Source of the DNA: Candidatus Daviesbacteria bacterium | GTDB taxonomy: Bacteria; Patescibacteriota; Microgenomatia; Daviesbacterales; UBA10151 | Length of the DNA stretch: 64,000 nucleotides | Assembly (NCBI GenBank): GCA_016184225.1 | Contig: JACPDA010000004.1 | Coordinates: forward strand, 6,800 to 70,799 | Reading direction: 5' to 3' | Part shown: positions 15,620 through 61,847 of the stretch, one piece after another | Layout: the number at the start of each line of letters is the position of its first letter | Numbering within the stretch: position 1 is the stretch's first letter | Made by a program: the position numbers and the translations under genes | The notes under the pieces: generated by a model | Database searches by the model: none | The model's input: the letters and a program-made list of their open reading frames with translations, nothing else | Told to the model about the DNA's origin: nothing

Positions 15620-15627
15620 TTTGTTTC

Positions 15628-15725: not shown

Positions 15726-15772
15726 ATAGTAGGATTGTAATAGATTCCAAAGCTATTGTAAAATACGCATCT

Positions 15773-22726: not shown

Positions 22727-23845
22727 TTATATTAAATCCAAAAATTCATCAAATAAATAACCGCCCTCTGTCGGACCCGGGTTGGCTTCCGGGTGAAATT
22801 GTACTGCTATAAAAGACTTTTTATTGTGCCTAATCCCCTCATTTGTGCCGTCATTTAAATTAACAAACCACTCTAGCCACTCTTTTCCTAAAGATTTCAT
22901 ATCCACCGCGAAACCATGATTTTGACTGGTTATGATAGCTTTCTTGTTATTTTGATCTAGTACAGGCTGATTTTGGCTTCTATGACCGAACTTTAGTTTG
23001 TAAGTTTCTCCTCCAGCTGCCAAAGATAAAATCTGGCTGCCTAAACAAATACCAAAAGTGGGGACACCTGCATCAAGCAACTGCTTAACAGTTTCTATAG
23101 TGGCTTTAGCCTGTTTTGGATCTCCCGGGCCGTTGGAAATTAGAACTCCGTCAAATCCGCCAGCTGGCGGACTAGCTATCGGATTAAAATCCCAGGGCAC
23201 CCTGGTTACCCTGACTCCTCTTTTAACTAAACTCCTGATAATATTTTCCTTGGCTCCGCAATCAATTAAGACTATATTTTTCTTGTTCATCCTGAGCGAA
23301 GTCGAAGGACCATACACCTCCACCTTTTTACAACTAACATAAGGCAAGATATTCTCTTTATTCGGATCATAAATAGAGTCGCTAGTCGCTAGAGTCGAGA
23401 GTCTAGACTGTTGATTCCTAGACTCTAGATTCTTGACTCTAGACTCTACTTCTATTCGACCAAGCATCACTCCATGCTTCCGAAGCTTAGTAGTCAACTC
23501 CCTGGTATCAATCCCCTGCAAAGCAGGTATCCCTTCATCTTTCAGCCACTCCCCCAAAGTTTTCTGGCTTTCAAAATGTGACGGGTGGTCAATATAGTTT
23601 TGCACAATTAACCCCTTAACCTGAATTTTTTTTGATTCCCAAAACTTTTTTCCCGGCACCCCGTAATTTCCCTGCAAGGGATAAGTCAAAACTAGGATTT
23701 GGCCAAAATAAGATGGGTCTGTCAAGGATTCCGGGTATCCCACCATACCGGTATTAAAAACCACCTCGCCTGAGGTAGCTACCTCTTTCCCAAAGCTTTC
23801 TCCTAAAAAAACTGTCCCATCGGACAGAATCAGTCTCCCTTGCAT
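22727..23845 (-). CDS. carA: carbamoyl-phosphate synthase small subunit (glutamine amidotransferase)
   Basis: Class I GATase triad region (GICLGSQ...HPE). It contains an in-frame PPAGG palindrome and the SRLSTLATS repeat module. Confidence 0.9.
   Translation of the reverse strand: MQGRLILSDGTVFLGESFGKEVATSGEVVFNTGMVGYPESLTDPSYFGQILVLTYPLQGNYGVPGKKFWESKKIQVKGLIVQNYIDHPSHFESQKTLGEWLKDEGIPALQGIDTRELTTKLRKHGVMLGRIEVESRVKNLESRNQQSRLSTLATSDSIYDPNKENILPYVSCKKVEVYGPSTSLRMNKKNIVLIDCGAKENIIRSLVKRGVRVTRVPWDFNPIASPPAGGFDGVLISNGPGDPKQAKATIETVKQLLDAGVPTFGICLGSQILSLAAGGETYKLKFGHRSQNQPVLDQNNKKAIITSQNHGFAVDMKSLGKEWLEWFVNLNDGTNEGIRHNKKSFIAVQFHPEANPGPTEGGYLFDEFLDLI
23381..23460. repeat. 80-bp repeat module (gtcgctagtcgctagagtcgagagtctagac...) shared with the fpg gene at 29805-29885
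   Basis: Near-identical blocks encode ...SRLSTLATS... in frame in both CarA and Fpg. Confidence 0.8.
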
Positions 23846-23860
23846 AAATTTACTCTCCTT

Positions 23861-24799
23861 TTATCGAGAATTAATTCTTCCTAAGACTAAAGCCAACAAC
23901 GCTTCTCTAATATATAAACCATTCCTGGCTTGAGCAAAATAAATGGCATTTTTATGACTATCTAGCGCCGGATCAATCTCATTTACTCTAGGCAAAGGAT
24001 GCATCAATTTTATTCCCCGATCCAGGTACTTCTTAAAAGAAGAGTCTAAAATAAATTTATCTTTAATCCTTTCGTATTCCTTTAAATCTTTAAATCTCTC
24101 TTTCTGCACTCTGGTTTGGTAAAGAAAGTTTGCCTCTAAGTTTTCCGGCAAACGTTCATATTCTTCATAAGTCACTTTCCTGCTTTTTAAAATCTTTAAA
24201 AATTCATCAGGCATCGCAAGATTAGGGTGTGAAATAAAAATCTGTTTAACTCTAAAAAGGCTTAAAGCAAGAGAAAGCGCATGAACGGTTCTGCCATATT
24301 TTAAATCCCCCATCAAGGCTACTGTAATCCCATCTAACTTCCCGGCCTCCTTCATCATCGTATAAAGATCAAGCATTGTTTGAGTTGGATGCTGATTAGG
24401 CCCGTCTCCTGCGTTTATAACCGGAATTTGGGCAACTTCTGCTGCCTTTTTTGCTGATAAAGCCTCCGGGTGCCTCATAATTAAAACATCAGCATATGAG
24501 TCCATAATTCTGATAGTATCTGAAAAAGTTTCACCTTTGTGAATGGAGGTGGCCTCCGGATCATTAAAACCAATTATCCCCATGCCTATTTTTTGGGCTG
24601 CAGAACGGAAGGATTGTTCTGTCCGAGTAGAAGGTTCAAAAAAAAGCAAAGCAACAATTTTACCTTGGGCAATAGTGTAATTTGACCTGTCGCTTTTAAC
24701 AAAAGCCGGATCAAATCTTTTAGCAGTTTTTAAGATATATAGCAGCTCTTCTTTGGAAAAATCATTTATGTCTATAATATCTCTGCCTTTAAATTTCAT
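23861..24799 (-). CDS. pyrB: aspartate carbamoyltransferase catalytic subunit
   Basis: STRTR and HPTQ motifs. Confidence 0.9.
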   Translation of the reverse strand: MKFKGRDIIDINDFSKEELLYILKTAKRFDPAFVKSDRSNYTIAQGKIVALLFFEPSTRTEQSFRSAAQKIGMGIIGFNDPEATSIHKGETFSDTIRIMDSYADVLIMRHPEALSAKKAAEVAQIPVINAGDGPNQHPTQTMLDLYTMMKEAGKLDGITVALMGDLKYGRTVHALSLALSLFRVKQIFISHPNLAMPDEFLKILKSRKVTYEEYERLPENLEANFLYQTRVQKERFKDLKEYERIKDKFILDSSFKKYLDRGIKLMHPLPRVNEIDPALDSHKNAIYFAQARNGLYIREALLALVLGRINSR

Positions 24800-24800
24800 A

Positions 24801-24824
24801 TGTCATTCTGGCTTGTCCAGAATC
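24801..24824. repeat. MITE-like half element (TGTCATTCTGGCTTGTCCAGAATC) immediately upstream of pyrB
   Basis: Same terminal motif as the other family members; here it is a short palindromic core only. Confidence 0.7.
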
Positions 24825-24828
24825 TCTC

Positions 24829-24854
24829 CAAAAAAAATCCGCCCATTGGCGGAT
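24829..24854 (-). terminator. likely rho-independent terminator (hairpin tccgcccattggcgga followed by a U-tract on the minus strand)
   Basis: A GC-rich hairpin plus eight T residues in minus-strand sense, downstream of ORF 24956..25216. Confidence 0.55.
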
Positions 24855-24955
24855 CAATAAACTATTAAATCTAATTCAAAAATACATTTCTTATGCATAG
24901 CCTTGAGATAGTTTAATGCTAGATGTTTTTCCTGTCAACCCCTGAAAATCGAAAC

Positions 24956-25216
24956 CTACTTTGCAAGTCTTGTCCTCTTGAATTCTAAATATTCAACAAT
25001 CCGCGGATCATCTATCGGTATTGGACTATTTTTTTGACCAAGTGCCACACATAGACCTCCAAGATATGTTCCAATTCCTTCTGGCGGTATTCCCAGCTGC
25101 GCAACCAAACTTTCTACTAAAGGATATCCCTGGCCTGCGTCTCTCTCAGTCTGACCCATTTCTATTTTTTCTACCATAATATTTTCTCCATTTAAAAAAC
25201 CCTTGTAAATCTCCAA
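24956..25216 (-). CDS. hypothetical small protein between pyrC and pyrB
   Basis: The ORF sits in an operon-like position; I recognise no motif. Confidence 0.35.
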   Translation of the reverse strand: MEIYKGFLNGENIMVEKIEMGQTERDAGQGYPLVESLVAQLGIPPEGIGTYLGGLCVALGQKNSPIPIDDPRIVEYLEFKRTRLAK

Positions 25217-25486
25217 TCATTAGATCAGAAACTTACAAGGGCCTTTTATGGCGGTGCCACCTTGCTTAAATTTTTTTACAAAAATTTATCTCTTTCAGCG
25301 CTCCGTTCCGCCAGCTGGCGGACGACACGCTTATTGTATTTGCACAGTTCAATTTCTGTCATACTCTATCCTTCGACTTCGCTCAGGACTGATGTATGCT
25401 GCTTGTCCGCTGCGGCGGACTTATCGTTGCTTACGCAAACAAACGCATTATGAATACAGTATACCATAAAAACTTAAGTTGTCAAA

Positions 25487-26545
25487 TCACCCTTTCAGAA
25501 TTTGTCCATATGGACCAAAAATGTTTTGGCCATCATAAACCATCTTCCCTCTTAAAACCACTTTTTTAACTCTCCCTGTTACCTTCATTCCAACAAAGGG
25601 GGTCCAACCACATTTGGTAAACAAGTTGTTAGGGTTTAGGGTGTAGGGTATAGTTTCTACTTCTACAAAAGTTTCTGGTTGTTGGAGAATACCAAAAATT
25701 CTTTTGGGATTGGTGCTTGTCAACTCGATCAATCTCTCCAGAGTCAATCGCCCATCATTTACAGCTGTCAGTAGCAGTGGTAGCGTAGTTTCCAACCCCG
25801 GCACACCGTATGGCGGCTTTTCCCCTTCTTTTTCTGCTCTGGTGTGCGGAGCATGATCAGAGGCAATCATATCAATGGTCCCCTCAACCACGGCTTGCCA
25901 TAGGGCATCTTGATCTTCTTTGCTGGAAAGAGGTGGCTTCATCAGTCCATATGCACCCAACCTTTTTGCGTCTTCATTAGTTAAAAACAGATGGTGACAG
26001 GTTACCTCACTGCTTATTTGCAGGCCATTCCTTTTGGCAGCTTTAATTAGTTCAATCTCTTTTCGCAAAGAAACATGACAGACATGCAACTGATTACCAA
26101 ATTTTTTGGCCAAGAAAATGGCTTTTTGCAACGTATCACCTTCTGCATGAACTAAAACAGGCAGGTTTTTTGGCCAGGTGGAAAAAACAGCCTCCAAAGT
26201 TTGATCATCCTCCATCAATAAATCCCCGGTGGTCTGATTCATATAAACTTTCAACCCAAACACCTTACCGGAAATTTCATTGAAATACTGAATGCTTTTA
26301 CTGCTGGCCCCAAAATGAAACCCCACATCAGCATAAATTCTTCCCCTGGCCAGATCTATTTTTTCCTGCAAAGCCTGCGGTGAAATAGTGGGAATAGGAT
26401 TATTCGGCATATCCAAAACTAAAGTATACCCACCGGCAATGGCAGCTTTGGTGCCTGTTTCAAAGTCCTCTTTTTGGGTGGCACCCGGTTCCCGAAGGTG
26501 CACATGAGGATCAATTAACCCGGGGAGTTTAATCTTATTTTGCAT
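25487..26545 (-). CDS. pyrC: dihydroorotase-like cyclic amidohydrolase
   Basis: GLIDPHVHLREPG metal-binding motif and the pyrimidine gene neighbourhood. Confidence 0.8.
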   Translation of the reverse strand: MQNKIKLPGLIDPHVHLREPGATQKEDFETGTKAAIAGGYTLVLDMPNNPIPTISPQALQEKIDLARGRIYADVGFHFGASSKSIQYFNEISGKVFGLKVYMNQTTGDLLMEDDQTLEAVFSTWPKNLPVLVHAEGDTLQKAIFLAKKFGNQLHVCHVSLRKEIELIKAAKRNGLQISSEVTCHHLFLTNEDAKRLGAYGLMKPPLSSKEDQDALWQAVVEGTIDMIASDHAPHTRAEKEGEKPPYGVPGLETTLPLLLTAVNDGRLTLERLIELTSTNPKRIFGILQQPETFVEVETIPYTLNPNNLFTKCGWTPFVGMKVTGRVKKVVLRGKMVYDGQNIFGPYGQILKG

Positions 26546-26594
26546 TTACCATTACATTCTAACAAACAAGTGTTATTTTTGTTAGAATTATTAT

Positions 26595-26852
26595 ATGGCG
26601 AAAAAGGATCAGGTATTCCACAAAGAGCTAATTAGGCAACTTCTTACCCTATCAACATCAGCTTTTGGTCTGGCTGCAGCATTGGCTTGGAATGAAACCA
26701 TCCAGCAAACAGTCAAGGAATTTATTGAACCCTCCCTACCGGGTTCAGGAGTCTTATCAAGATTTATCTACGCTATCTTGGTCACGCTTTTTGCTGTGCT
26801 GATAACCTTCCAACTTTCCCGCCTGGCCCAAAAATGGAGGCTTAAAAGTTAA
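26595..26852 (+). CDS. small two-TM membrane protein, hypothetical
   Basis: Two hydrophobic segments; no known motif. Confidence 0.4.
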   Translation: MAKKDQVFHKELIRQLLTLSTSAFGLAAALAWNETIQQTVKEFIEPSLPGSGVLSRFIYAILVTLFAVLITFQLSRLAQKWRLKS

Positions 26853-27903
26853 TCTGCCCGTCCTCAACCCTTAAGATCCTAGCAGAATCTAAAAATTCCT
26901 GGGGGATATTCTCCAGCTCTACTGTAGCAATAATGGTTTGTTGCTTACCGACCACCTCTACCACATGAGCCCGGTGAGGAACATCCAGCTCGGAAAAAAC
27001 ATCATCCAGCAAAAGCAACGGCCGCTTCCCCAAAATTTTAGCCATATACTCAAGTTGAGCCAGCTTAAAAGCCAAAGTGGCTGTCCGCTGCTCCCCACGG
27101 GAACCGAAATGAGCTATATTCCGCCCTTCCAATAAAATCCCAAAATCATCCCTGTGCGGACCGATTAACGTGGCAGCTGCTGCCACCTCCCTACCGTTTG
27201 TTTCAGCCAACTTCTCAGCATTGATCTCACTGGGCTCATACTCAAATCTAAATTCCCCTAACGGTCCGCCAGCTGGCGGATTATTAATAAATTCAAAAAA
27301 TCTTTTTCTCTTATCAGTTATCAACCCTCCCCGACTTACCAAACCCTCTGTCCAATAATCTAGCTCATCTTTCTTACCATACCCCTCCCTGATCCGCTTT
27401 AACACTCTATTCCTGGCTGTTAAGAATTGTTCATAAGCAGTTAAGGCTTTTTTGTATTCCTGGTCAATCTGGGCTAAACCTAAATCCAGATGCCACCTAC
27501 GCAGGCTGGGTGAACCGGTTACCATATTAATATCAGACGGATAAAAAATAATTGCCGGCAAATTACCAATAAAATCCACTACCCTCCTAGAAATTCCATT
27601 AACCAAAACTTTCTTTCTAAAAAGCACTTCTTTACTGGGTCTGTTTAAAATTATAAGCAACTCTGTTTCTCCCCTGTCCTCCAAAAAGCCTTCTACTTTA
27701 GCAAATTCTTCCCCTTCTTTTATCAGCTCATCTTCTGTCTCCACCCGCAGCGACTTACTGGTAGAAAGAAGGTAAATCGCCTCCAAAAGATTAGATTTGC
27801 CGGCCGCATTATTACCAACCAGAACGGTCGGCCGCTGATCGAAGCTTAACTCGAGAGATGAATAATTCCTGAAATTAGTTAAATTTAACTTTCTTAAAAA
27901 CAT
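26842..27903 (-). CDS. recF: DNA replication and repair protein RecF
   Basis: Walker A GNNAAGKSNLLEAI and SMC-like signature LLLDDVFSELD. It contains an in-frame PPAGG palindrome. Confidence 0.88.
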   Translation of the reverse strand: MFLRKLNLTNFRNYSSLELSFDQRPTVLVGNNAAGKSNLLEAIYLLSTSKSLRVETEDELIKEGEEFAKVEGFLEDRGETELLIILNRPSKEVLFRKKVLVNGISRRVVDFIGNLPAIIFYPSDINMVTGSPSLRRWHLDLGLAQIDQEYKKALTAYEQFLTARNRVLKRIREGYGKKDELDYWTEGLVSRGGLITDKRKRFFEFINNPPAGGPLGEFRFEYEPSEINAEKLAETNGREVAAAATLIGPHRDDFGILLEGRNIAHFGSRGEQRTATLAFKLAQLEYMAKILGKRPLLLLDDVFSELDVPHRAHVVEVVGKQQTIIATVELENIPQEFLDSARILRVEDGQINF

Positions 27904-29313
27904 CTACTTCCCTTCCCAATGCCCCAACCCTAAAAACTCCCTCACCCGATAAGATAATTCATGTTTTCTAAAAAATAAACTAGGATTAAGCCCAAAGAGC
28001 CCCACCATAATTACCAAAAACCCTAGTCCGATAAAAATAGGGGTGGTGCCGAAAATATCAGCCAAAATACCTACCAGAAAAATCGGGATTAAAGAGAGCG
28101 CAGACATGGCCACCCCTAAGACAGAAAAAACTTTCCCCCGGTTGCTTTCCGGGGTATTTTGCTGCAGTACTGTTTGTGAAGGAATCAGGATGGAAACTAT
28201 AGCCATTCCTATTAAAAACGACCCCACTACCAAAACTTTAGAAAGCGGCAACTGGTAAAAAAAGGGCACGGGCCGCGGATGCTTAAAATAATTAACAGCA
28301 GGAGACACAAGCGGGGCAATCCCTACCAAAAAAAGCAATAACCCCACAAAAAGAATAGCTCTGGAAACTAATTTCCTCTTGACTAAACTGCTCCCAAATT
28401 TGCCCAGGATCATTCCTCCAGTGATAATCCCCAACCCCAAGGGGATAATCAACACATAAGTTGCATCCGTTGCTTTAATTTGCAATGACCTTTCCAAGAA
28501 ACCAGGGGCTAAAACTGCCATAATGCCTATGCCCATCTGGACTCCTGCCAGGATCAGGATAGAAGATAGCACCGGCAATTTTCCCTTAATAATCCTCATT
28601 GTTTCTGAAATTTCAAACATGCCGATCTCTTTGATCTCGGAATATTTTCTTTTGGCCAGAGCCCAGATAAGCCTTTTACCTTGTGCATCCGGCGTAGATT
28701 GAATGGAAGGAAACAAAAGTGACAATATAAATGCCCCGGCCAAAATTACTCCACCCAATCCAAATACCACATTAATGCCTAAATGGGTAATCAAAGGCCC
28801 GGCCAAACCAAACCCCACCAAAAAGGCCGAGTACAATGTAGCCGAGAAGAGCGAGTTGGCAGTCAACAGTTGATTCTTTTTCACCACCAAAGGGATGGCA
28901 GAGGCTTCAGCCGGGGAATAAAATTGACCTAAAGCATTAATTAAAAAAGTTATCGCTAAAATTGCCGGAAAGCTTCCCTTAAAAAAAATCAGGCTGAAAA
29001 AGAGGATACTTAAGAAAAAATCAATCACCATAATGATCTTTTTCCGGTCAGTAATGTCAACCAGTACACCAGAAAATAACCCTAAAATTACTGCCGGCAG
29101 GTAAATTGAAAAAAGCAGGGCCGACACAGCAGTGTTGGAATCAGTCAGTTTAAAAACCCAAATAATCAGGGCAAAGTTTAGGGCATTAAAAGATAATTGA
29201 ACTAAAATTTGGTTAACCCACAGGTTTAGAAAACCCTTGTTTTTTAACACCCCGGAAAAGGAGACTTTTTCAGCCATAGGGTAGATTATACGGCTTTCTG
29301 GCAATGAGGGCAA
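27904..29313 (-). CDS. MFS transporter
   Basis: Twelve or more predicted TM helices and MFS-like loops. Confidence 0.7.
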   Translation of the reverse strand: MPSLPESRIIYPMAEKVSFSGVLKNKGFLNLWVNQILVQLSFNALNFALIIWVFKLTDSNTAVSALLFSIYLPAVILGLFSGVLVDITDRKKIIMVIDFFLSILFFSLIFFKGSFPAILAITFLINALGQFYSPAEASAIPLVVKKNQLLTANSLFSATLYSAFLVGFGLAGPLITHLGINVVFGLGGVILAGAFILSLLFPSIQSTPDAQGKRLIWALAKRKYSEIKEIGMFEISETMRIIKGKLPVLSSILILAGVQMGIGIMAVLAPGFLERSLQIKATDATYVLIIPLGLGIITGGMILGKFGSSLVKRKLVSRAILFVGLLLFLVGIAPLVSPAVNYFKHPRPVPFFYQLPLSKVLVVGSFLIGMAIVSILIPSQTVLQQNTPESNRGKVFSVLGVAMSALSLIPIFLVGILADIFGTTPIFIGLGFLVIMVGLFGLNPSLFFRKHELSYRVREFLGLGHWEGK

Positions 29314-30293
29314 AGGTAGGTGCCGCGGCCGCCGAGTGAGATTTTTTTAATCTCTGTCCCGCAAACTTTACAAGGGTGTTTATCGCGCCAGTAGACAAAG
29401 GCATAATCTAAAAAATAACCTTTGTGTCCTTCCGCATCTACAAAATGTGCCCTGGTTGAACCTCCGTGCTTTATTCCTTCCCTTAAAGCCCTGACTACCC
29501 CACGGTGTAGAGCTTGGAATTTCCTATCAGTCAATGTAACCACTTTAGTCCGAGGATCTATTCCAGCCATAAAACAGGCCTCATTAGAGTAGATATTTCC
29601 CACTCCTGATACCACGCTTTGGTCCATAATAGCCACCTTAACTGGCATTTTCTTATGTTTCAATAAATTCTGCTTAAGAACCTGCCATGTAAACCCTTTT
29701 TCTAAGGGCTCCGGTCCAAGATTCTTGATTGAACTGTCCACTGTAACCTGTTGCCTGTCCACTACCTTCACCCATCCAAACTTCCTCTGGTCATTAAAAT
29801 ATAAGTGGCTAGTCGCTAGAGTCGAGAGTCTAGACTTTTCATATTTTTTTCCTAGACTCTTACCACTTGACTCTAGACTCTGAAGTGTAAATATCACCCT
29901 GGTATGAGAGTTTGGCATCTTACCTAACATATCCTCAGTCGGATGTCCGCCAATAAATTTATTGTCACCTGTCGCCTGTTGCCTACCGCCTTCCCATATC
30001 AGTTGGCCTGACATCTTCATATGAAAAAGAAGAGTTATCAGGTTAGAGGTTACAGGTTTCAGTTTTGAAACTTTTTTAACTGTCCCCTGTCCACTGTACC
30101 CTGTACCCTCTGCGAGGTCTATACCGAGCAGCTTCGCTCTTCTCCAAACTTTGAGTACTTTTTGTCCCTGGGCCAAATTAGGGTTTCCAATAAAAGATTT
30201 AGGAGATAAAATCTGGATCTTTTGGATCTTCAGTCCAATAATTTTATTTTGTAGACCCAGTCTAATGACCTCAACTTCGGGAAGTTCTGGCAT
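29286..30293 (-). CDS. mutM: formamidopyrimidine-DNA glycosylase (Fpg/MutM) with repeat-derived in-frame insertions
   Basis: N-terminal MPELPEVE and a C-terminal zinc finger C..C...CPHCQ. The protein is about 335 aa versus about 270 canonical; the extra segments are encoded by GTTACAG repeats and the SRLSTLATS module. Confidence 0.85.
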   Translation of the reverse strand: MPELPEVEVIRLGLQNKIIGLKIQKIQILSPKSFIGNPNLAQGQKVLKVWRRAKLLGIDLAEGTGYSGQGTVKKVSKLKPVTSNLITLLFHMKMSGQLIWEGGRQQATGDNKFIGGHPTEDMLGKMPNSHTRVIFTLQSLESSGKSLGKKYEKSRLSTLATSHLYFNDQRKFGWVKVVDRQQVTVDSSIKNLGPEPLEKGFTWQVLKQNLLKHKKMPVKVAIMDQSVVSGVGNIYSNEACFMAGIDPRTKVVTLTDRKFQALHRGVVRALREGIKHGGSTRAHFVDAEGHKGYFLDYAFVYWRDKHPCKVCGTEIKKISLGGRGTYLCPHCQKAV

Positions 30294-30321
30294 AAGGATA
30301 TTGTACTACAGAAGAATCAGT

Positions 30322-30573
30322 CTACAGTTGTCGGATGAAAGCACCTAGGGCATGTAGGCCTGATGACAATTTTTTTGGTAACCAAGGCTTTGACATGGAT
30401 GATAAAAACTTGTTTCTCTCTCTAATAGTGGGCGCTACTATTATTTCTAACTCTTCCGGACTAAAATCTGGAGCATCTACACTACCTCCCTGTATAAGAG
30501 CTTCCCTTGCTTTGCTTACCTCACTCCATCTTACCGGAGAACCTAATCTGTCCACCTCAACTTGGATAGCCAT
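30322..30573 (-). CDS. hypothetical small protein (doubtful)
   Basis: ORF only. Confidence 0.2.
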   Translation of the reverse strand: MAIQVEVDRLGSPVRWSEVSKAREALIQGGSVDAPDFSPEELEIIVAPTIRERNKFLSSMSKPWLPKKLSSGLHALGAFIRQL

Positions 30574-30603
30574 ATCTTCAGTCTAACCCATCTGAAAAAT
30601 CTG

Positions 30604-30855
30604 TCAAGACCTTTTTCCCAGTTTGAATTTGATCAGTAAAAAAAGAGTAAAACCTAACAGGGAAACATAAATTGGGAAGCCGCTGTGGGCAAAATCCCAC
30701 TGCTTAATAGTAAACAATGTAATGACTGCACCTAAGCCATTAAACAAGTACACCTGATAATTTTCAGTTTCCGGAACCTTATATGACTTAACTATAGTAT
30801 GTAAAATCACCAAAGAAAATAAGAATAGCAGCCACAAATACAAATTTCTCATCAA
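30604..30855 (-). CDS. small membrane protein, hypothetical
   Basis: Two or three hydrophobic helices. Confidence 0.4.
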   Translation of the reverse strand: MMRNLYLWLLFLFSLVILHTIVKSYKVPETENYQVYLFNGLGAVITLFTIKQWDFAHSGFPIYVSLLGFTLFLLIKFKLGKRS

Positions 30856-30866
30856 TCATAAAGGGT

Positions 30867-31718
30867 TTAAATTAATTTAACTAACCTGCCGCTTCTTAAG
30901 GATTTCTTAAACACCAGAGTGAAAAAGATCAGCGAGGCAACCATATAAATTATGTTCAATAAAACCGCTGTCCAGAAGGAACCATAATCAAACTGGCCAA
31001 ACTTTAAAGTATATCTCATACCCTCAAATACATGGGAAATAGGCAAGAAAAAAGCGATCTTTTGAAATATGGGTGGCAAGACAGAGATCGGATAAAAAAC
31101 AGCGGCAAAGGGTTGGACAAAAAACGGCAAAATCCAAGTTAAGGGTCCGATTGAATGGCCATATTTTAAAATTAAGGAAATATTAAAAATGCCGAAAGAG
31201 ATGGCAAAGATAAATAAATTTATCCAAAGCAGGGCCAAACCAAACCCCAGGCTGGTAATTTGAAAATTATAAAAAATCCCGGCCATCAGCCACATAGAAG
31301 TTAAGGCAATCATGATTTTAATAAAACTAATTGTTAAAAGCCCTGTTAAAAATTCTAAAAATGTAATTGGTGAAGCCAAAAGGTTGATAATATTGCGGTC
31401 CCAAATTTCAAACATAAAATTTACCCCGATATCAGTACTGACTTTTTCAAAAATCACCCACAAAATCATCCCCCCAAGCAAAAATGATGCTAGCTGGGAA
31501 GACTGGATATTTTGCACATATTTTGACAAAAATCCCCACAGAATTAAAACCAACACCGGAGAAATAATCACATCAAAAAACCTCTCCAGCTGATGCATGG
31601 TGGTAAAAATATGCCTTAAGACTATCGCAAAGATTCTGTTAAGATTCATATTTACTCCTTGATAGGTGGATGAATACATCCCTAAGGTTTGGCTCATCCC
31701 CTTCCAGCTTAAGCACAC
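30867..31718 (-). CDS. ABC-2 type transporter permease
   Basis: Six TM helices; lies downstream of the ABC ATPase. The real start is probably an internal Met. Confidence 0.7.
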   Translation of the reverse strand: MCLSWKGMSQTLGMYSSTYQGVNMNLNRIFAIVLRHIFTTMHQLERFFDVIISPVLVLILWGFLSKYVQNIQSSQLASFLLGGMILWVIFEKVSTDIGVNFMFEIWDRNIINLLASPITFLEFLTGLLTISFIKIMIALTSMWLMAGIFYNFQITSLGFGLALLWINLFIFAISFGIFNISLILKYGHSIGPLTWILPFFVQPFAAVFYPISVLPPIFQKIAFFLPISHVFEGMRYTLKFGQFDYGSFWTAVLLNIIYMVASLIFFTLVFKKSLRSGRLVKLI

Positions 31719-32424
31719 TCTGAGTCAACTCAAGCGGGGTACCGGAAGCCACAATTTTTCCGTGGTTTAAGAAAATCACATTATTGGCAATCTCTTCTAT
31801 TTCCCACATGTTGTGGGAAGTATAAAGAATGGTAATTTTTTCCTCTTTTTGGATTTGTTTGAGCAAATTAATCCCTTTATCCACCACATCAGGATCCATG
31901 GAAACCATCGGCTCATCTAAAAGCAGTAGTCTTGGTTTATTAAGCAAGGCCTTACACAGGTTAGCCCTAGCCCGTAGCCCTGTTGATAAATCCCGGGTAG
32001 CAGTGTTGCGGAAATCAATCATTTCAAAAAGCTGGAGCAGTTCCGTGATTCTTTTTTTGGCCTCCGGCACTTCATAAAGCTTGGCATAAACCAATAAGTT
32101 CTCCCAAATAGTTAAATTCCAAGGCAAATTAAAATCAGCCGAAGCATAATTTACTTCTTTAAAAATTTCACTCCTGTCTTTGGAAATATCCTTGCCAAAA
32201 ATACGGATATTACCCTCATCCGGAACAATCAAACCTAAAATGCAATAAATAGTGGTAGATTTGCCTGCCCCATTTGGTCCTAAAAATCCCAAAATCTCCC
32301 CTTCTTTCAAAGAAAAAGAAATATTATCAATAGCAGTAAATCCGCCGGCTGGCGGACCAAAGTTTTTCCTTAAATTTTTCACTTCCAAAATCACCCTTTT
32401 ATCCATAATTTTCCCTTCTGTCAT
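31639..32424 (-). CDS. ABC transporter ATP-binding protein
   Basis: Walker A GPNGAGKST, ABC signature and Walker B LLLLDEP. It contains an in-frame PPAGG. Confidence 0.88.
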   Translation of the reverse strand: MTEGKIMDKRVILEVKNLRKNFGPPAGGFTAIDNISFSLKEGEILGFLGPNGAGKSTTIYCILGLIVPDEGNIRIFGKDISKDRSEIFKEVNYASADFNLPWNLTIWENLLVYAKLYEVPEAKKRITELLQLFEMIDFRNTATRDLSTGLRARANLCKALLNKPRLLLLDEPMVSMDPDVVDKGINLLKQIQKEEKITILYTSHNMWEIEEIANNVIFLNHGKIVASGTPLELTQSVLKLEGDEPNLRDVFIHLSRSKYES

Positions 32425-32503
32425 TGCGAGCGATTAGCGTGGCAATCTAATTAAGGATTTACCCACCCAAGATTGCTTCGTCACTACGTTCCTCGCAATG
32501 ACA
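32419..32503. repeat. MITE-like element, long hairpin variant (TGTCATTGCGAG...CTCGCAATGACA)
   Basis: 11-bp terminal inverted repeats enclosing about 60 nt; intergenic. Confidence 0.7.
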
Positions 32504-32592
32504 ATTGTATTGTATTTATTGTAGTTTAGATTGAGGCTAATTACCAGAGATCAAGCAGGTTTTGCGGAACGGGTTACAACCCTGAGCGAGCG

Positions 32593-33579
32593 TTAGCGAG
32601 TCGAACGGGCCTCAGAGACTTTTTGGGCTCTTTCTAAAAAGCTTTTTTGGGCAGCCTGTACATTTTCTTCCTTCCCGACCCAGACGGTTAAGGCCTCATC
32701 CTGCAAAGCCCGGCCATATGAGAAAGACAACTGCCAGGGACCACCAATTTTGGTGATAGCAGCCAAATTCTCAGTGGCCTGATCTGGAGTCTGGCCTCCT
32801 GACAAAAACACAATCCCGGGAACCTCTTTTGGTATTACTTCCAGGAAAGTTTGTACCGTAGCTTCGGCAATTTCTTGACTGCTGGCCTGAATAGAACTTT
32901 CCTTCCCGGAAATAACCATATTAGGCTTTAACACCATCCCTTCTAATACTATTTTGTGGGCTTTTAACCGGTTAAAAACCGCTTTCAAGGTTTTAGCAGT
33001 TACTTCCCAGCATTTTGCCAAATCATGGCTGCCGTCCATCAGCACTTCCGGCTCCACGATCGGCACTATCCCCTGCTCCTGACAAAGTTTGGCATATTCA
33101 GCCAGCCTTTCAGCGTTTTGCTGAATACAATTATCCGTCGGTATTCCCTCTCCGATGGTAATAACAGCCCGCCATTTGGCAAATTTCGCACCTAATTGCT
33201 TGTATTCAGATAACCGCTCTTTTAATCCCTCTAAACCTTCCGTGACTTTCTCACCTGCAGAATTTGGTAAATCTACCAAACCCTGATCCACTTTTATTCC
33301 CGGTAAAATCCCTTTACTTTCCAGGTATTTTGGAACAGACACCCCATTAATAGACTGCCTGATTGTTTCATCATAAAGGATGACACCTGATAAAAACTGT
33401 TCAATTCCTGGAGTAGTAAAAAGCATTTTGCGGTAAGCTAAATTAGTTTCCGGGCTGGACTGCAAACCGATTTTTTCAAATCTTCTTTGAATGGTTTTAG
33501 TAGATTCATCAGCAGCCAGGATCCCTTTTCCCGACGCCATTAGAGCTTGAGCAGTTTGTTTTAGTATAGATATATCCAT
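32593..33579 (-). CDS. fructose-bisphosphate aldolase, class I
   Basis: The GILAADESTKT motif and overall pattern fit class I FBA. Confidence 0.8.
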   Translation of the reverse strand: MDISILKQTAQALMASGKGILAADESTKTIQRRFEKIGLQSSPETNLAYRKMLFTTPGIEQFLSGVILYDETIRQSINGVSVPKYLESKGILPGIKVDQGLVDLPNSAGEKVTEGLEGLKERLSEYKQLGAKFAKWRAVITIGEGIPTDNCIQQNAERLAEYAKLCQEQGIVPIVEPEVLMDGSHDLAKCWEVTAKTLKAVFNRLKAHKIVLEGMVLKPNMVISGKESSIQASSQEIAEATVQTFLEVIPKEVPGIVFLSGGQTPDQATENLAAITKIGGPWQLSFSYGRALQDEALTVWVGKEENVQAAQKSFLERAQKVSEARSTR

Positions 33580-33589
33580 ATCCTCCTCT

Positions 33590-33673
33590 TGTCATTCCGA
33601 GGAGCGAAGCGACGTGGGAATCTTTATTTTTTAATCAAGATTGCCACAGCCACTTCGTGGCTTCGCAATGACA
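33590..33673. repeat. MITE-like element, long hairpin variant (TGTCATTCCGAGGAGCGAAGC...GCTTCGCAATGACA)
   Basis: Same terminal family; intergenic between fba and glpX. Confidence 0.7.
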
Positions 33674-33674
33674 C

Positions 33675-34730
33675 TTAACGGTGTAACCGTTTTTCTATCT
33701 TGGCACCTCTTTTAGATACTGTCAAGGTTGTCACTTCATGTCCGCCGTCTTTTTCTACTACTCCGGATAAATCAAACCATTTATTATCACCGGTTATGGC
33801 AGAAATGGAGACCGAGCAATCCTCCTTTTTACCGGAAACCAACTCATCTATTTTCCAAGCCTTTTTGTATTTTTGGGCAATTTCCGTATCAGGCGACCAA
33901 CCCCTACCTTCCCCTACCGCCCCCAAAGCTTTGGCTGCCACTGCCGCGAGTACCCCCTCTTCAAATCCTCCAATCCCCATCACCAGATGTATTCCTTTTG
34001 TCATTCTGGCACCGACTCTGTCGAGTGTCCTCGATTCCATCGGGACTTGTCCAGAATCTTTTTTAGGATCCATACAAGATAAGATAGACGGCAGAAAGTC
34101 TCCGGCGGGAATCTTAATGAGATTAACCCCGAATTTTTGGCAGGCATTAATCAAATGGCTATTCCTGTCCCGATCCATCATCACCACATTAATCTCAGCA
34201 GGTTTGACTCTAAATATATCCACCACTTCTGCTAAATTTTCCTCTACTCTCTTATCAATGGAAATCTTACCTAGTAGCTCGGGTGGGCCAAATAATTTAT
34301 CCATATAATCTATATCCGGCGGAGTTGGCATCAAGCCTTTGTGGGAACCTACTGCGATCACAGAAACAGCCCCGGGAGAATTTAACTTGGCAGCTTTACT
34401 GCCTTCCACCACATCGTTAACCATGTCCAATTTCAAGTCACTTCCGCCAGCTGGCGAACCAAAAGTTCCCTCCAAAGTTGGCAGCGCTTCCCCGTATTGA
34501 TGGATATGTTTTCTGCCCTCAGAGCCAACTACTTCCAAAACAAACGGGATATCGGTTAAAGCAGCATACATAGCATCCACCCCGGCCTGGTCAATCAATT
34601 TCTCCCGGGCCTTGGATTCTTCTTCTGTCAAAAGATCTTGCGGGCTAAAGCCTTTTTCCTGAATTAGCCTCCAAACTGATAAAGCAGTTAGCTCGGTGGC
34701 ACGAATAATATAATCTCTAACTTTAGGCAT
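33675..34730 (-). CDS. glpX: fructose-1,6-bisphosphatase class II (GlpX-like)
   Basis: Alignable by eye to GlpX (VIAVGSHKG, IPAGDF..ILSCM, MGIGGFEEGVLAAVAAKALGA). It contains an in-frame PPAGG-type palindrome and a MITE-like insertion. Confidence 0.75.
   Translation of the reverse strand: MPKVRDYIIRATELTALSVWRLIQEKGFSPQDLLTEEESKAREKLIDQAGVDAMYAALTDIPFVLEVVGSEGRKHIHQYGEALPTLEGTFGSPAGGSDLKLDMVNDVVEGSKAAKLNSPGAVSVIAVGSHKGLMPTPPDIDYMDKLFGPPELLGKISIDKRVEENLAEVVDIFRVKPAEINVVMMDRDRNSHLINACQKFGVNLIKIPAGDFLPSILSCMDPKKDSGQVPMESRTLDRVGARMTKGIHLVMGIGGFEEGVLAAVAAKALGAVGEGRGWSPDTEIAQKYKKAWKIDELVSGKKEDCSVSISAITGDNKWFDLSGVVEKDGGHEVTTLTVSKRGAKIEKRLHR
33999..34058. repeat. MITE-like element, in frame in glpX
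   Basis: TGTCATTCTGGCACCGACTCTGTCGAGTGTCC...GGACTTGTCCAGAATC encodes ...DPKKDSGQVPMESRTLDRVGARMT... Confidence 0.7.
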
Positions 34731-51479: not shown

Positions 51480-51516
51480 ATTTTTTATAACCCTGAGCGT
51501 AGTCGAAGGGCTCCAC

Positions 51517-53295: not shown

Positions 53296-54675
53296 TCAAG
53301 ACTCAAGTTTATCCCTAAACTGGTCATAACTGATTTGGGTAGCTTTATAATCCTGGATCTCAAAAGATTCTTCTTTGAAAGTGATCTTTTTATTTTCTTT
53401 TAAGTCTTTCCTTAAAACTACTCCTGGACCAATAAGTGAGTTGCTCCCTACTCTGACACCGGGCATAGTGGAAGCATTCACCCCTATCCGCACCCCTTTT
53501 CCGGCAATCAAACCTAGCTTGTTTCTGCCTGTTTCAAGATGTTCCTCCCCCACAGTAACATCTTTATTGTCTAATCGCAGATTGGCCAACACAGCTCCCG
53601 AACCCATACCAAAATCCCCTTCTAATACAGAATCCCCGATATAATTGGTGTGGAACCAGGAATCTGGGCCAATATAGCTTCTGGTAATATCGGAATTAAA
53701 ACCGGTCACACAGCCGTCCTCCAGGTTTGATTCACGGACCATGGAATTGTTTCCCACGATGCAGTTTTTTCCGATGTAACAAGGGCCTTTAATCACCGCT
53801 CCTTCAAACACCTTTGCCCCATCTTCAATAACCACCTTGCCTTCAATAGTGGCCTTTTCCGACACTTTTGCCCCCGGGGAAATTTTCTGTTCAATTTTTG
53901 AGTCTTCGAGAAAATAGTCCACGTCTATCTTGGATAAAAAGTAAGCTGTAACATCCAAAATATGCCAGGGGTATTTTAAAGGAATCCAGGTTCCTTCGTA
54001 TTTTGAAAACCTAACATCCAATCCGTCTTTTATCATTTGATCTAAAGCCACTTCATAAACATCATCCCTTCGACTTCGCTCAGGGTCAGAGACTTTTTCT
54101 AGGTACTCAACTAGCTTTTTACCATCTTTAAAATAATCCACTACCAGTTTGACCAGATCAGAAGGCTCCCTACCTTCTCCTGGTTTCTCTACTATCCCCT
54201 GTACCCTGTCACCTGTAACCTTTAGATATCCTCCAGGAAAGTACTTATCCATTTTCAGTCCTGCCAGAACTACATCTGCCTGAATTCCCAAAACTCCCTG
54301 GAAAACTTTAGGGTTCAAGACATCTTCAGCATTAACTATTAACACTTCTCCCTCTATCAAATCTTTGGCAGAAAGCAGAGCATCTGCCATTCCTTTGGGC
54401 TCATTTTGAACTGCTATTTGAAAATTCAAACCCAAATCCTGGGCAACTTTTGCAACTGCTTCTTTGCTTTGGGGATTTGTTACGATGATAAAGCTACCCA
54501 GTTCACCTGGAAGGTGGGCTTTGTTCCGTAGGATGTTTTCTCCTTCCAGGTGGAGCTTGATTTTCTGCAAGTTATGATACAACAGGGGTTTGCCTAAAAA
54601 GGGAATCAGGCATTTATCAGTTTGGATCGGCCACATCCTTTTGCCCTCTCCCCCAGCCAAAACAATAATCTTCAT
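53296..54675 (-). CDS. sugar-phosphate nucleotidyltransferase with a C-terminal left-handed beta-helix (GlmU/GCD1-like)
   Basis: MKIIVLAGGEGKRM NTP-transferase motif and multiple hexapeptide repeats. It contains an in-frame GTTACAG block and an ERSRRDD repeat. Confidence 0.8.
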   Translation of the reverse strand: MKIIVLAGGEGKRMWPIQTDKCLIPFLGKPLLYHNLQKIKLHLEGENILRNKAHLPGELGSFIIVTNPQSKEAVAKVAQDLGLNFQIAVQNEPKGMADALLSAKDLIEGEVLIVNAEDVLNPKVFQGVLGIQADVVLAGLKMDKYFPGGYLKVTGDRVQGIVEKPGEGREPSDLVKLVVDYFKDGKKLVEYLEKVSDPERSRRDDVYEVALDQMIKDGLDVRFSKYEGTWIPLKYPWHILDVTAYFLSKIDVDYFLEDSKIEQKISPGAKVSEKATIEGKVVIEDGAKVFEGAVIKGPCYIGKNCIVGNNSMVRESNLEDGCVTGFNSDITRSYIGPDSWFHTNYIGDSVLEGDFGMGSGAVLANLRLDNKDVTVGEEHLETGRNKLGLIAGKGVRIGVNASTMPGVRVGSNSLIGPGVVLRKDLKENKKITFKEESFEIQDYKATQISYDQFRDKLES

Positions 54676-61577: not shown

Positions 61578-61604
61578 GGCATATTATAGCATAGAATATG
61601 TTGT

Positions 61605-61847
61605 ATGTGGTTTCTCTATATTCTCCTTTGTAAAGATGGAAGTCTTTATACTGGAATATCAAACAACGTAGAAAAAAGATTTTCCGAGCACAAAAATGGC
61701 AAAGGAGGAAGATACACCAGGTCACATAAACCTATTAGGTTAGTTTACCAAGAACAATTGCGAAACCATACAGAAGCTTTAAGAAGAGAATGTGAAATTA
61801 AAAGTTGGACCAGGGCAAAGAAGATTAAAGTTCTAGAGTTTGACTAG
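61605..61847 (+). CDS. GIY-YIG nuclease superfamily protein (UPF0213-like)
   Basis: FLYILLCKDGSLYTGISNNVEKRFSEH contains the GIY...YIG pattern, with conserved Arg and Glu downstream. Confidence 0.8.
   Translation: MWFLYILLCKDGSLYTGISNNVEKRFSEHKNGKGGRYTRSHKPIRLVYQEQLRNHTEALRRECEIKSWTRAKKIKVLEFD

Follow-up and report, generated by a model that had tools for sequence, protein, structure and literature searches.

Fungal mitochondrial genomes carry GC-rich palindromes, such as the yeast GC clusters, the Neurospora PstI palindromes and the Allomyces double-hairpin elements. These are short GC-rich hairpins of AT-rich compact genomes, lying close to tRNA genes, within loops of rRNA and now and then in frame in protein genes, with presence/absence polymorphism, nested insertions and an unknown mobility mechanism, and in this they resemble the 16-bp palindrome described here, which we designate F1. 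They differ from it in being organellar and usually 18-50 bp or more in length, with sequences peculiar to each lineage; neither a bacterial counterpart as small as F1 nor a description of F1 itself was found in the literature searched. HIP1 (GCGATCGC) of cyanobacteria is, like F1, an over-represented palindromic word that lies in genes with a frame bias, but it is 8 bp long with a frequency of roughly one per kb, and substitutions produce it with no change in length, whereas F1 is much rarer and adds 2-4 codons. The REP/REPIN sequences (RAYT, Y1 HUH) are also short palindromes, perfect or imperfect, that are highly repeated, form hairpins and have often been co-opted as terminators; they are 20-40 nt long, strictly extragenic, species-specific and RAYT-associated.

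The Rickettsia palindromic elements (RPEs) measure ~100-150 bp and encode 30-50 residues (Ogata et al. 2000, 2002, via PMC10969869). As that source describes them, they resemble F1 in being palindromic repeats inserted in frame in unrelated housekeeping genes, and also in RNA genes and spacers, and in being tolerated at protein surfaces, in several families, in reduced genomes and with no known transposase. In the same account they are confined to Rickettsia, whereas the exact F1 word extends over many CPR classes as well as Bacteroidota and other phyla, and F1 encodes only 5 residues and has no conserved flanks; moreover, it takes the place of target bases and has a link to a GIY-YIG/tRNA cassette. 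Judged by its host and its spread over phyla, F1 does not belong to RPE-1 to RPE-10 as presented there.

We analysed a 64-kb stretch of DNA (the window) from Candidatus Daviesbacteria, a groundwater CPR bacterium with a tiny genome. Comparison with relatives leads us to regard F1 as probably an ultra-short palindromic insertion element that is kept only where it is harmless.

Results

The repeated unit is a 16-bp palindrome

A motif scan of the window found CCGCCAGCTGGCGG exactly at 23157, 25308 and 27266, with one-mismatch copies at 32342 (CCGCCGGCTGGCGG) and 34444 (CCGCCAGCTGGCGA). The initial annotation had reported a recurrent 14-bp palindrome; the recurrence was confirmed, but because a T and an A flank all five copies, the complete palindromic unit measures 16 bp, TCCGCCAGCTGGCGGA. 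The copies are:

23156..23171, in carA (ORF 22727-23845, minus strand): exact F1, read PPAGG, residues 226-230
25307..25322, in a T-box-like leader RNA on the minus strand: exact F1, capping the conserved stem GCGUGUCG/CGGAGCGC
27265..27280, in recF (ORF 26842-27903, minus strand): exact F1, read PPAGG, residues 209-213
32341..32356, in an ABC-transporter ATPase gene (ORF 31639-32424, minus strand): variant TCCGCCGGCTGGCGGA, read PPAGG, residues 24-28
34443..34458, in a glpX-type FBPase gene (ORF 33675-34730, minus strand): variant TCCGCCAGCTGGCGAA, read SPAGG, residues 92-96

The proposed gene assignments held for carA (PF00988 and GATase), recF (product MBI2196042.1, named RecF by NCBI), the ABC ATPase and the glpX-type FBPase. 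The palindrome is also, as had been claimed, far above chance: dinucleotide-preserving shuffles gave exact matches in 0/100 cases and a mean of 0.07 at up to 2 mismatches, and a mononucleotide model predicts 2.7e-6 exact 16-mers in the window, against 3 exact and 2 one-mismatch copies seen. An assembly artefact is excluded, since the F1 sequence is identical in independent Logan assemblies from five sequencing runs. Besides the 16-bp unit, the initial annotation had missed the insertions and replacements relative to orthologues, a second mini-element, and the link to tRNA fragments and to a GIY-YIG nuclease cassette.

All copies lie within 11.3 kb of the window (P ~0.004), the remaining 53 kb having none, and ~9 kb of extra flanking sequence contained zero. 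This clustering of 5/5 window copies in 11 kb is left unaccounted for by the insertion-element reading and is counted against it.

Copies are replacements that are absent from most relatives and decay

Orthologues with 60-87% identity mostly have no F1 at the window sites, and are then 2-4 codons shorter with ancestral residues; of these sites, 0/5 hold F1 in the closest relative with DNA sequence, whose RecF is 86% identical. At carA residue 226, orthologues without F1 are 2 codons shorter, and one (L029) has a decayed copy read as PRAGG. Alignment of carA with human CPS1 places a 4-residue gap in the F1 loop, the window protein being 4 residues longer. At recF residue 209, ~40 orthologues are shorter by 2 codons and read xLEK or xLQT; in a sister clade the site holds TCCGGCxxxxGCCGGA, translated as NPA(V/T/A)AG. 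F1 is absent at residue 24 of the ABC ATPase in L006, L013, L050, L049 and L019, together with 4 codons, and L011 and L294 have there a member of the TCCGGC...GCCGGA family, read PAGAG. At the glpX site PPAGG is present in L006, decayed in L029, L047 and L010, and absent in eight other orthologues and in L294, giving the series PPAGG, PPNGG, PAPGG and PAGAK. Decay at such shared sites, including the carA PRAGG, speaks against the DNA word being under purifying selection. Relatives have F1 elsewhere, at recF residue 77, carA residue ~196 and in a class I aldolase, and F1 carriers are not monophyletic in the RecF tree. In ORFs the net change in length is a multiple of 3; where no frame applies, changes of +13, +13, +13, +8 and +6 are seen.

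Judged from these comparisons, copies arise at the DNA level by a 16-mer replacing a few target bases, without target-site duplication, and the inserted copies later decay by point mutation.

A different role, put forward in the initial annotation, is that of a protein-binding palindrome. F1 would then be the site of a dimeric DNA-binding protein (parS-like, nucleoid-organising or regulatory) with which it co-evolves. Consistent with this, F1 is a perfect palindrome of the size of parS, its window copies are clustered, and, while the window has F1 throughout, the sister genome L294 has TCCGGC...GCCGGA at two of the same sites, recF209 and ABC24, through a symmetric swap at positions 5 and 12 (C-G to G-C). 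The parS consensus is TGTTNCACGTGAAACA, however, which F1 does not resemble beyond length and symmetry, and no ParB, origin or par genes or other partner were found in the window. The GC-skew flip there coincides with the flip in gene strand, not with dnaA. As the positions are not conserved, the copies decay, and tRNA fragments, protein tails and terminators of different phyla share the word, we consider a binding site very unlikely. The parallel 5/12 swap, which would also fit a palindrome-binding factor co-evolving with its site, is an observation that we count against the insertion-element reading.

The suggestion of a DNA-uptake sequence, or of a HIP1-type word over-represented through restriction, methylation or repair, fared worse still and appears highly improbable. 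F1 is over-represented and frame-biased as HIP1 is, it has a CAGCTG core, and CPR bacteria are believed to import DNA. Yet its density of ~1 per 13-45 kb (the 64-kb window has 5 copies, relatives ~1 per 45 kb), with most of the window empty, is far below the ~1 per kb of uptake sequences. Its copies are length-changing insertions rather than substitutions, missing at the sites of close relatives and decaying, and uptake tags, being lineage-specific, would not be expected to be identical between unrelated phyla. Nor does F1 behave as a restriction or methylation site: it is over-represented, not avoided, and a scan of the annotated window ORFs found no gene for a methyltransferase, a restriction enzyme or a ComP-like protein.

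Coding copies keep one reading frame

In 4/4 coding copies of the window the palindrome is read as T followed by CCG CCA GCT GGC GGA, giving PPAGG three times and SPAGG once. The constancy of frame noted initially extended to all coding copies at 7 sites in relatives. Among low-GC genomes of other species, 34/94 F1 copies lie in long ORFs, 28 of these 34 in the PPAGG frame (p = 6e-9); high-GC genomes have the word mostly in an ordinary RQLAE frame. The codons are identical at each coding copy, and the chance that a PPAGG peptide would use exactly these is ~0.001 per copy. Taken with the copies in non-coding RNA and spacers, the shared codons indicate an effect at the DNA level and not at that of the peptide. 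The recF site is a coil between helix 178-207 and strand 218-223 in the AlphaFold model.

Together, the copies lie in tolerated places, namely protein surface loops, RNA stem-loop tips, dead tRNA-gene fragments and intergenic positions (some resembling terminator stems), and those in protein loops are almost only in the frame giving the flexible P-P-A-G-G.

The non-coding copy caps a stem of a T-box-like leader

The copy at 25307 had been assigned to a spacer. It is indeed non-coding, but instead of lying in neutral spacer it is within a promoter-driven leader RNA:

25198..25507, minus strand: T-box-like leader, with one F1 copy and one copy of a second element, F4
24838..24853 (24855-24836), minus strand: intrinsic terminator hairpin TCCGCC-AATG-GGCGGA followed by T8, kept in relatives

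The leader has a strong promoter (25485-25458), a T-box motif (AAGGTGGCACCGCC) and a terminator (25242-25199), and scores 23 bits as a T-box, under the Rfam threshold. The predicted free energy of its stem goes from -7.2 to -19.4 kcal/mol with the F1 insert. Relatives have GTAA or GAAAAAT as the loop at this place, and two (L023 and L015) bear other mini-hairpins.

These structures bear on whether F1 copies are selected RNA hairpins, acting in transcript stability, in ribosome or RNA polymerase pausing or in termination, and spreading through benefit to the cells. The F1 stem-loop is stable (-11 kcal/mol), the same stem with a different loop forms the true terminator at 24838 and in relatives, and the F1 of the nuclease cassette described below resembles a terminator together with its D-stem. 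In Bacteroidota, F1 is usually at the tip of terminator-like hairpins between genes, a T-run adjoins 10 of 98 distinct copies elsewhere (~10%), and variation falls mostly in the 4-nt loop, with the 5/12 swap being compensatory. On the other hand, 0/5 window copies have a T-run 3' of them and so none is an intrinsic terminator, the coding copies are absent at orthologous positions of close relatives, and stem and loop both decay. A benefit at the RNA level would also leave unexplained why one exact 16-mer occurs in many phyla and in dead tRNA fragments. We therefore regard selected hairpins as an unlikely explanation of F1.

F1 has sister mini-elements

F1 probably belongs to a group of insertion elements that are all ultra-short GC-rich hairpins, the others seen being F2 (TCCGGC-N4-GCCGGA), F4 (TCCTGAGCGAAGTCGAAGGA) and F7 (CCTGCCTGCCGGCAGGCAGG). 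F4, an imperfect palindrome that behaves like F1, occurs in the window as follows:

23290..23309, plus strand: exact F4 inside carA, read PSTSLR, 120 nt from F1
25369..25388, minus strand: exact F4 in the T-box-like leader, 47 nt from F1
51491..51510, plus strand: F4 variant with 3 mismatches, intergenic
54066..54085, minus strand: F4 variant with 2 mismatches, inside a GlmU-like ORF (53296-54675)

Among carA orthologues, the carA-site F4 is present in the window and L020 only. The leader F4 is missing at that place in L010, and L015 has F4 in the loop that holds F1 in the window. Several hairpin families thus occupy the same sites in different lineages, which could reflect turnover, target preference or mere tolerance, and in one relative (L287) an F1 copy is nested in the loop of another F1.

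One exact word recurs across phyla

The exact 16-mer is over-represented in low-GC genomes of several bacterial phyla; among the first 120 species-genome matches listed, ~41 were CPR and ~33 Bacteroidota. In an unbiased 797-kb sample, the F1 stem was by far the commonest GC-rich hairpin, and AGCT was the only one of the 16 possible palindromic 4-nt centres seen on it.

This bears on the idea that no existing element is copied and that intrastrand template switching instead builds each palindrome afresh where it stands, seeded for example by the Gly-Gly codons GGC GGA. GGC GGA or GGT GGT is already present at the recF77, aldolase and carA196 targets, L294 has the right-half-like ACT GGC GGG at carA226, and stems starting in TCC and ending in GGA dominate the hairpin census. 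Such a process predicts site-specific palindromes, yet the same 16 bases with the AGCT centre recur; no seed is present at sites such as recF209, carA226 and the leader loop, and the imperfect palindrome F4 shows the same behaviour. De novo formation accordingly seems distinctly unlikely.

Around the copies, no conserved flanks were found, and flanking direct repeats of at least 4 nt adjoin 0/98 distinct copies, with 2-3 nt repeats within the null range. F1 therefore lacks the target-site duplication of a MITE. An IS bounded by TCCGCCAG...CTGGCGGA was not seen in 1.36 Mb of loci, and the whole F1 unit is itself a palindrome. F1 differs further from REPs in being often intragenic (4/5 window copies), and no Y1 transposase (PF01797) was found among the 58 window ORFs scanned against Pfam.

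F1 lies in tRNA fragments beside a GIY-YIG nuclease gene

In truncated duplicate tRNA fragments, F1 substitutes for loop bases. A cassette found in CPR combines a tRNA-Asn 5' fragment, in which F1 has taken the place of the D-loop, with an ORF for an 83-aa GIY-YIG protein lying 25-35 nt downstream. This arrangement was present in 4/4 members of the GIY-YIG family looked up and in L146 and L128, that is, in 6/6 CPR lineages examined. Its F1 is exact in 5/6 lineages, though the nuclease proteins are just 60-70% identical, and this strict conservation, which counts against the insertion-element reading, indicates that the cassette copy at least is functional and not junk.

The cassette is comparable to the free-standing GIY-YIG homing genes, such as Seg and Mob of T4-like phages: a small ORF lies by or in a conserved gene, here tRNA-Asn, with part of the target duplicated and the remnant disrupted, as cassettes of other CPR genomes display. 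It differs in that no DNA-binding domain is recognisable in the 83-aa protein, in that homing of the cassette is putative, and in that one and the same 16-bp palindrome makes up the disruption every time; this palindrome also stands alone elsewhere in the genomes. The window has one ORF of this superfamily:

61590..61844, plus strand: small GIY-YIG nuclease ORF (PF01541), the only nuclease of the superfamily in the window

This ORF belongs to another subfamily than the tRNA-Asn cassette nuclease and has no adjoining F1; no F1-associated nuclease gene was found in the window or beside its five copies.

Discussion

F1 looks like selfish or repair-scar DNA of ultra-small size. Since its copies have neither target-site duplications nor conserved flanks, fill-in repair fits better than classical transposition. 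Copying by break and fill may proceed as follows: a nuclease would cut and a few bases would be lost, and both 3' ends would then copy a resident palindrome; the palindrome being self-complementary, the two new tails could anneal together and the break would be sealed. The best candidates for the master copy and its cognate nuclease would be the F1 of the tRNA-Asn fragment and the 83-aa GIY-YIG gene downstream of it.

We put forward more tentatively, as a possibility that may well prove wrong, that F1 and its sister hairpins are mobile DNA, smaller than any seen so far. As self-complementary fillers of 16-20 bp, they would close chromosomal breaks cut by a small GIY-YIG (or other structure-specific) nuclease, with the cassette copy as template, in a new, transposase-free propagation that continuously remodels protein loops and RNA stem tips across CPR and Bacteroidota.

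The 83-aa GIY-YIG protein and the 16-bp palindrome form a candidate enzyme-site pair that could explain the movement of F1 and might serve as a compact DNA tool. Experiments are possible because one F1 host, Mucilaginibacter flavidus RT5R15, is a cultured isolate. F1 copies are usable as strain-level markers, and alignment, phylogenomics and annotation of these genomes are affected because the same peptide occurs in unrelated proteins. The CPR comprise a large share of bacterial diversity and have almost no genetics. If a 16-bp element does propagate and is translated as a five-residue loop, it would bring the known size limit of selfish or mobile DNA down almost tenfold from that of RPEs and MITEs, and would mean that in-frame indels arise repeatedly in the highly compact genomes of these bacteria.

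A 16-bp GC-rich palindrome recurs in four genes and one leader

The 14-mer CCGCCAGCTGGCGG was found exactly at positions 23157, 25308 and 27266 of the 64-kb window and with one mismatch at 32342 and 34444, compared to no exact match in 100 dinucleotide-preserving shuffles, which bears out the recurrence above chance described in the initial annotation. The 14-bp unit proposed there captured the core and not the full repeat: a T precedes and an A follows each of the five copies, and the repeated unit is therefore the 16-bp perfect palindrome TCCGCCAGCTGGCGGA (F1), of which 2.7e-6 copies are expected in the window under a composition model. The shuffles and the composition model together ruled out an origin by chance or composition. 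F1 is conspicuous because it has 12 G/C of 16 in a window of 41% G+C. All five lie within 11.3 kb of the 64-kb window (P about 0.004), and no copy was seen in about 9 kb of sequence beyond the window. An assembly artefact was also ruled out, since the recF and spacer copies are base-for-base identical in independent assemblies of five sequencing runs; decayed related copies in assemblies from other studies and the presence of the word in an isolate genome likewise argue against it.

The genes around the copies are all on the minus strand. Pfam confirmed carA, a RecF-type ATPase, an ABC ATPase and a glpX-type FBPase as coding hosts, and in all four the element is read T CCG CCA GCT GGC GGA, which yields PPAGG in three of them and SPAGG in the other. 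Given the codon usage of this genome, the probability that a PPAGG peptide uses exactly these codons is about 0.001, indicating that the repeat is a DNA feature and not a peptide feature. None of the five copies is terminator-like. In an AlphaFold model of the window RecF of moderate quality (61-sequence alignment, mean pLDDT 65, residue-77 site in a low-confidence part), residues 209-213 form the coil between helix 178-207 and strand 218-223. The CarA copy coincides with a 4-residue insertion relative to human CPS1; a further 18-residue insertion relative to the same protein, NLESRNQQSRLSTLATSD, lies at residues ~136-160 of CarA (22727-23845). Other genes of the window encode a 23S-rRNA-intervening-sequence-type four-helix protein (13298-13819; also at 2563-2940 of a further locus, L262), an ATP-dependent DNA ligase (13871-15832), a Cas2-like PaaX_M/HxlR protein (17880-18383), PIN toxins and a XerC-like recombinase (62563-63462).

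F1 sites turn over among close relatives

A RecF protein-guided scan of metagenome contigs gave 79 loci, about 50 of them from relatives at 60-85% RecF identity and several on contigs of 0.8-1.1 Mb. Site states were read from codon alignments of the window and its relatives, and sites are named by gene and residue.

States of the element sites in the window and its relatives.
recF209: NPPAGG in the window; xLEK or xLQT, shorter by 2 codons, in about 40 relatives
ABC24: PPAGG in the window; 4 codons absent in five relatives
glpX92: SPAGG in the window; 2 codons absent in eight relatives; PPAGG, PPNGG, PAPGG or PAGAK in others
carA226: PPAGG in the window; 2 codons absent in ten relatives; PRAGG in one

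Relatives also carry F1 at sites that are empty in the window (recF77, carA residue ~196 and a class I aldolase), each time in the PPAGG frame, and three hot spots with element-derived peptides were seen among 120 Daviesbacteria RecF proteins. In a rough neighbour-joining RecF tree with the motif columns masked, carriers of the recF77 element fell in three separate places, and the window and L006 lay within a clade whose remaining members retain the ancestral xLEK. The closest relative with retrievable DNA, L294 (RecF 86% identical), has F1 at none of the five window sites, so that the window copies are evolutionarily young or have been block-replaced. Its glpX92 site and its leader loop both show the short ancestral form, carA226 shows just a right-half-like ACT GGC GGG, and recF209 and ABC24 hold another hairpin, F2 (TCCGGC-N4-GCCGGA), read PAxAG. 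Different hairpin families reuse the same sites.

Between the window and L294, two sites show a parallel symmetric 5/12 change, as would suit the protein-binding palindrome proposed initially, or a parS-like site; given the positional turnover and the absence of partner genes from the window, we consider such a role very unlikely. An origin-proximal parS was dropped, as dnaA, dnaN and parB are absent from the window, the sites are not conserved, and the reversal of GC skew at about 54.8 kb coincides with a change of gene strand.

The fifth copy caps a stem in a T-box-like leader

The remaining copy lies within the 690-bp spacer between pyrC and pyrB. The spacer location given initially was correct; the spacer is, however, not neutral, as it contains a promoter, a T-box-like leader and terminators.

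Features of the pyrC-pyrB spacer.
25198-25507, minus strand: T-box-like leader with strong promoter, AAGGTGGCACCGCC motif and terminator
25485-25458, minus strand: strong promoter of the leader
25242-25199, minus strand: terminator of the leader
Within the spacer: second terminator, TCCGCC-AATG-GGCGGA-T8, with a stem identical to that of F1
24956-25216: small unannotated ORF of about 73-86 aa after the leader, with no Pfam match

The T-box match is weak, with an Rfam score far below threshold, and the AAGGTGGCACCGCC motif is clear. At the gathering threshold, Rfam returned tRNAs only in the window and nothing relevant in twenty other loci. The conserved leader stem GCGUGUCG/CGGAGCGC has F1 as its cap in the window, whereas the cap is GUAA or GAAAAAU in two relatives, TCCCGATTAAATCGGGA in L023 and the mini-element F4 (TCCTGAGCGAAGTCGAAGGA) in L015; with the F1 cap, the predicted stability of the stem increases from -7.2 to -19.4 kcal/mol. 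In L294, what follows the equivalent leader is instead a 213-aa ORF together with a gene for an Asp/Glu racemase. Short-read assemblies of the window's organism (L002, L003 and L004) repeatedly end inside the leader, at the F4 copy and the GTCCGCCGCAGCGGAC hairpin (window 25376 and 25420), which suggests that mini-repeats, or strain variation at them, fragment assemblies.

F1 is found in low-GC genomes of several phyla

An exact-match scan of one genome per species gave at least 120 F1 matches, with the window's genome not among the matches listed. Composition alone predicts nearly all matches in high-GC genomes, whereas about 70% of those listed are in loci below 48% G+C. By record title, the matches listed include about 41 Patescibacteria/CPR of many classes, about 33 Bacteroidota (some on multi-megabase chromosomes), 4 Cloacimonadota and 2 Elusimicrobiota. 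One Bacteroidota carrier of exact F1 is the cultured Mucilaginibacter flavidus RT5R15. Its locus L139 (3780-4400 and 6900-7300) holds a MITE-like unit of about 150 nt. Inverted ends (CGTCATTGCGAGGAACGA) bound this unit, a CTACG...CGTAG segment lies within it, and F1 occupies one or both of its inner junctions; one of the copies is situated about 190 nt upstream of a GIY-YIG gene. The density of F1, the length change at its sites and its cross-phylum identity do not fit the DNA-uptake or restriction-related role suggested initially, nor a HIP1-like word, and we regard these as highly improbable.

Among the matches listed, the word in high-GC genomes is mostly read RQLAE/D in ordinary long ORFs (20/35), and the PPAGG reading accounts for 28 of 34 long-ORF copies in low-GC genomes (p = 6e-9), so that the constant frame first noticed in the window extends well beyond it. 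Viral contigs gave 55 matches, which look like chance because they are mostly high-GC and in the RQLAE frame; no specific phage association was found. Across 98-101 distinct low-GC copies there was no conserved flank sequence, usually no extended palindrome and no target-site duplication of at least 4 nt, and a T-run followed about 10%. No F1 half-sites bracketing a larger element were found, and F1 pairs bracketing mobile cargo were not general. Selection for an RNA hairpin would explain the terminator-like copies; it is nevertheless unlikely, as coding copies without T-runs, absence in close relatives and decay all speak against it.

In an unbiased 797-kb sample, TCCGCC...GGCGGA was by far the commonest GC-rich hairpin with a 6-bp stem (30 compared to 10 for the next), and AGCT was the only palindromic centre on this stem. 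De novo palindrome formation from Gly-Gly seeds would leave one exact word with one centre unaccounted for, and appears quite unlikely.

F1 is associated with tRNA fragments and a GIY-YIG gene

Several genomes carry F1 within a truncated partial copy of a tRNA gene, which duplicates its 5' part and is located just upstream of the intact gene.

F1 in tRNA gene fragments.
tRNA-Asn fragment, D-loop: L146, L128
tRNA-Cys fragment, D-arm, in tandem arrays: two Bacteroidales, L089 and L190
tRNA-Lys fragment, anticodon stem: L141
tRNA-Arg fragment, T-loop break: L106

With the ancestral sequence taken from the intact tRNA copy or from relatives, F1 was seen to replace 3, 3, 3, 8 or 10 nt in the tRNA fragments, the leader loop and a nested copy in L287. 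The net changes in length outside ORFs are +13, +13, +13, +8 and +6, in contrast to strict multiples of three in ORFs. The tRNA-Cys arrays (L089 3230-3330 and L190 4240-4520, from Bacteroidales/Rikenella MAGs) consist of tandem 45-56-nt units upstream of tRNA-Cys. A unit is made up of the tRNA's first 10 nt, then an F1-type hairpin where the D-arm would be, then tRNA positions ~21-30 and lastly a short spacer; the arrays contain no ORF.

A GIY-YIG ORF of 83-88 aa follows the fragment in L146 and L128, and a remnant of such an ORF is found in L141. A database search gave 276 homologues across CPR, and all four members with DNA fetched (30 loci, L264-L293) share one cassette architecture: a tRNA-Asn fragment (positions 1 to about 30, with F1 in place of the D-loop), a spacer of 25-35 nt, the GIY-YIG ORF and an intact tRNA-Asn that overlaps the stop end of the ORF. 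The fragment co-varies with the lineage's own tRNA. F1 is exact in five of six cassette lineages, whose GIY-YIG proteins are just 60-70% identical; in the sixth, L287, F1 is nested in the loop of another F1, where it replaces AGC. On these comparisons, F1 looks conserved by selection in the cassette and nowhere else. Some cassette loci have a second GIY-YIG ORF, a serine recombinase or a type I methylase adjoining. The GIY-YIG gene of the window (61590-61844) belongs to another subfamily and has no F1 beside it.

F1 is one of a set of mini-hairpins

The window has four F4 occurrences, against an expectation of none.

F4 occurrences in the window.
23290-23309: exact, in carA, read PSTSLR, 120 nt from an F1 copy
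25369-25388: exact, in the leader, 47 nt from an F1 copy
51491-51510 and 54066-54085: variants

In the RecF of relatives, F4 is read LSEVEG at the third hot spot, adjoined by longer inserts with VIARSxATKQS peptides; judged from the peptides, these resemble translations of GTCATTGCGAG...GAAGCAATC-type repeats. Another perfect palindrome, F7 (CCTGCCTGCCGGCAGGCAGG), occurs 13 times in the same loci as F1 matches, in frame (LPAGRQ), in a tRNA fragment or beside F1; its loci include L100, L102, L103, L117, L122, L179, L182 and L029 (at 1129). The window also holds TCC...GGA hairpins in polA (41305-41320, TCCCGGCACCCCGGGA, read PGVPG in DNA polymerase I), in a hypothetical ORF (36755-36769, TCCCGCTTCGCGGGA) and between pflB and pflA (4418-4432, CCCGATTAAATCGGG), the last being the hairpin that caps the L023 leader loop.

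Origin and classification of F1

F1 is a DNA-level insertion or replacement at many independent sites. Its copies decay, and selection restricts them to loops and to a single reading frame. F1 is one of a set of mini-hairpins, occurs in several phyla and shows a tight association with fragments of tRNA genes and with a small nuclease gene. We consider it probable that F1 is an ultra-short selfish or scar element; that a nuclease-driven filler mechanism generates it is a tentative possibility. The lack of target duplications and of a transposase gene in the window, the loss of a few target bases each time and the repeated use of hairpin-holding sites favour break-and-fill over classical transposition. 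In such a process, a break would be made, a few target bases would be lost and the palindrome would be filled in. A palindrome would lend itself to this, since the tails copied onto the two broken ends would be mutually complementary. For the cutting enzyme, the obvious candidate is the GIY-YIG protein, and for the template, the F1 copy of its cassette.

In size and behaviour, F1 is closest to mitochondrial GC clusters, PstI palindromes and double-hairpin elements. Among described bacterial elements, the nearest analogue is the Rickettsia palindromic element (RPE) family, with elements of about 150 bp in ten families and 44 insertions in R. conorii genes (PMC10969869). F1 departs from RPEs in both defining length and host, from MITEs in target duplication and from REPs in not being extragenic. 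Our literature search found neither F1, F7 nor the 12-nt F1 core in a relevant context, and nothing linking GC-rich palindromes with CPR. F1 probably belongs with the in-frame selfish palindromes, an already known kind, within which the lack of a literature match for F1, F7 or the concept in CPR leads us to class it as new, and there is a real chance that the mechanism by which it spreads is new.
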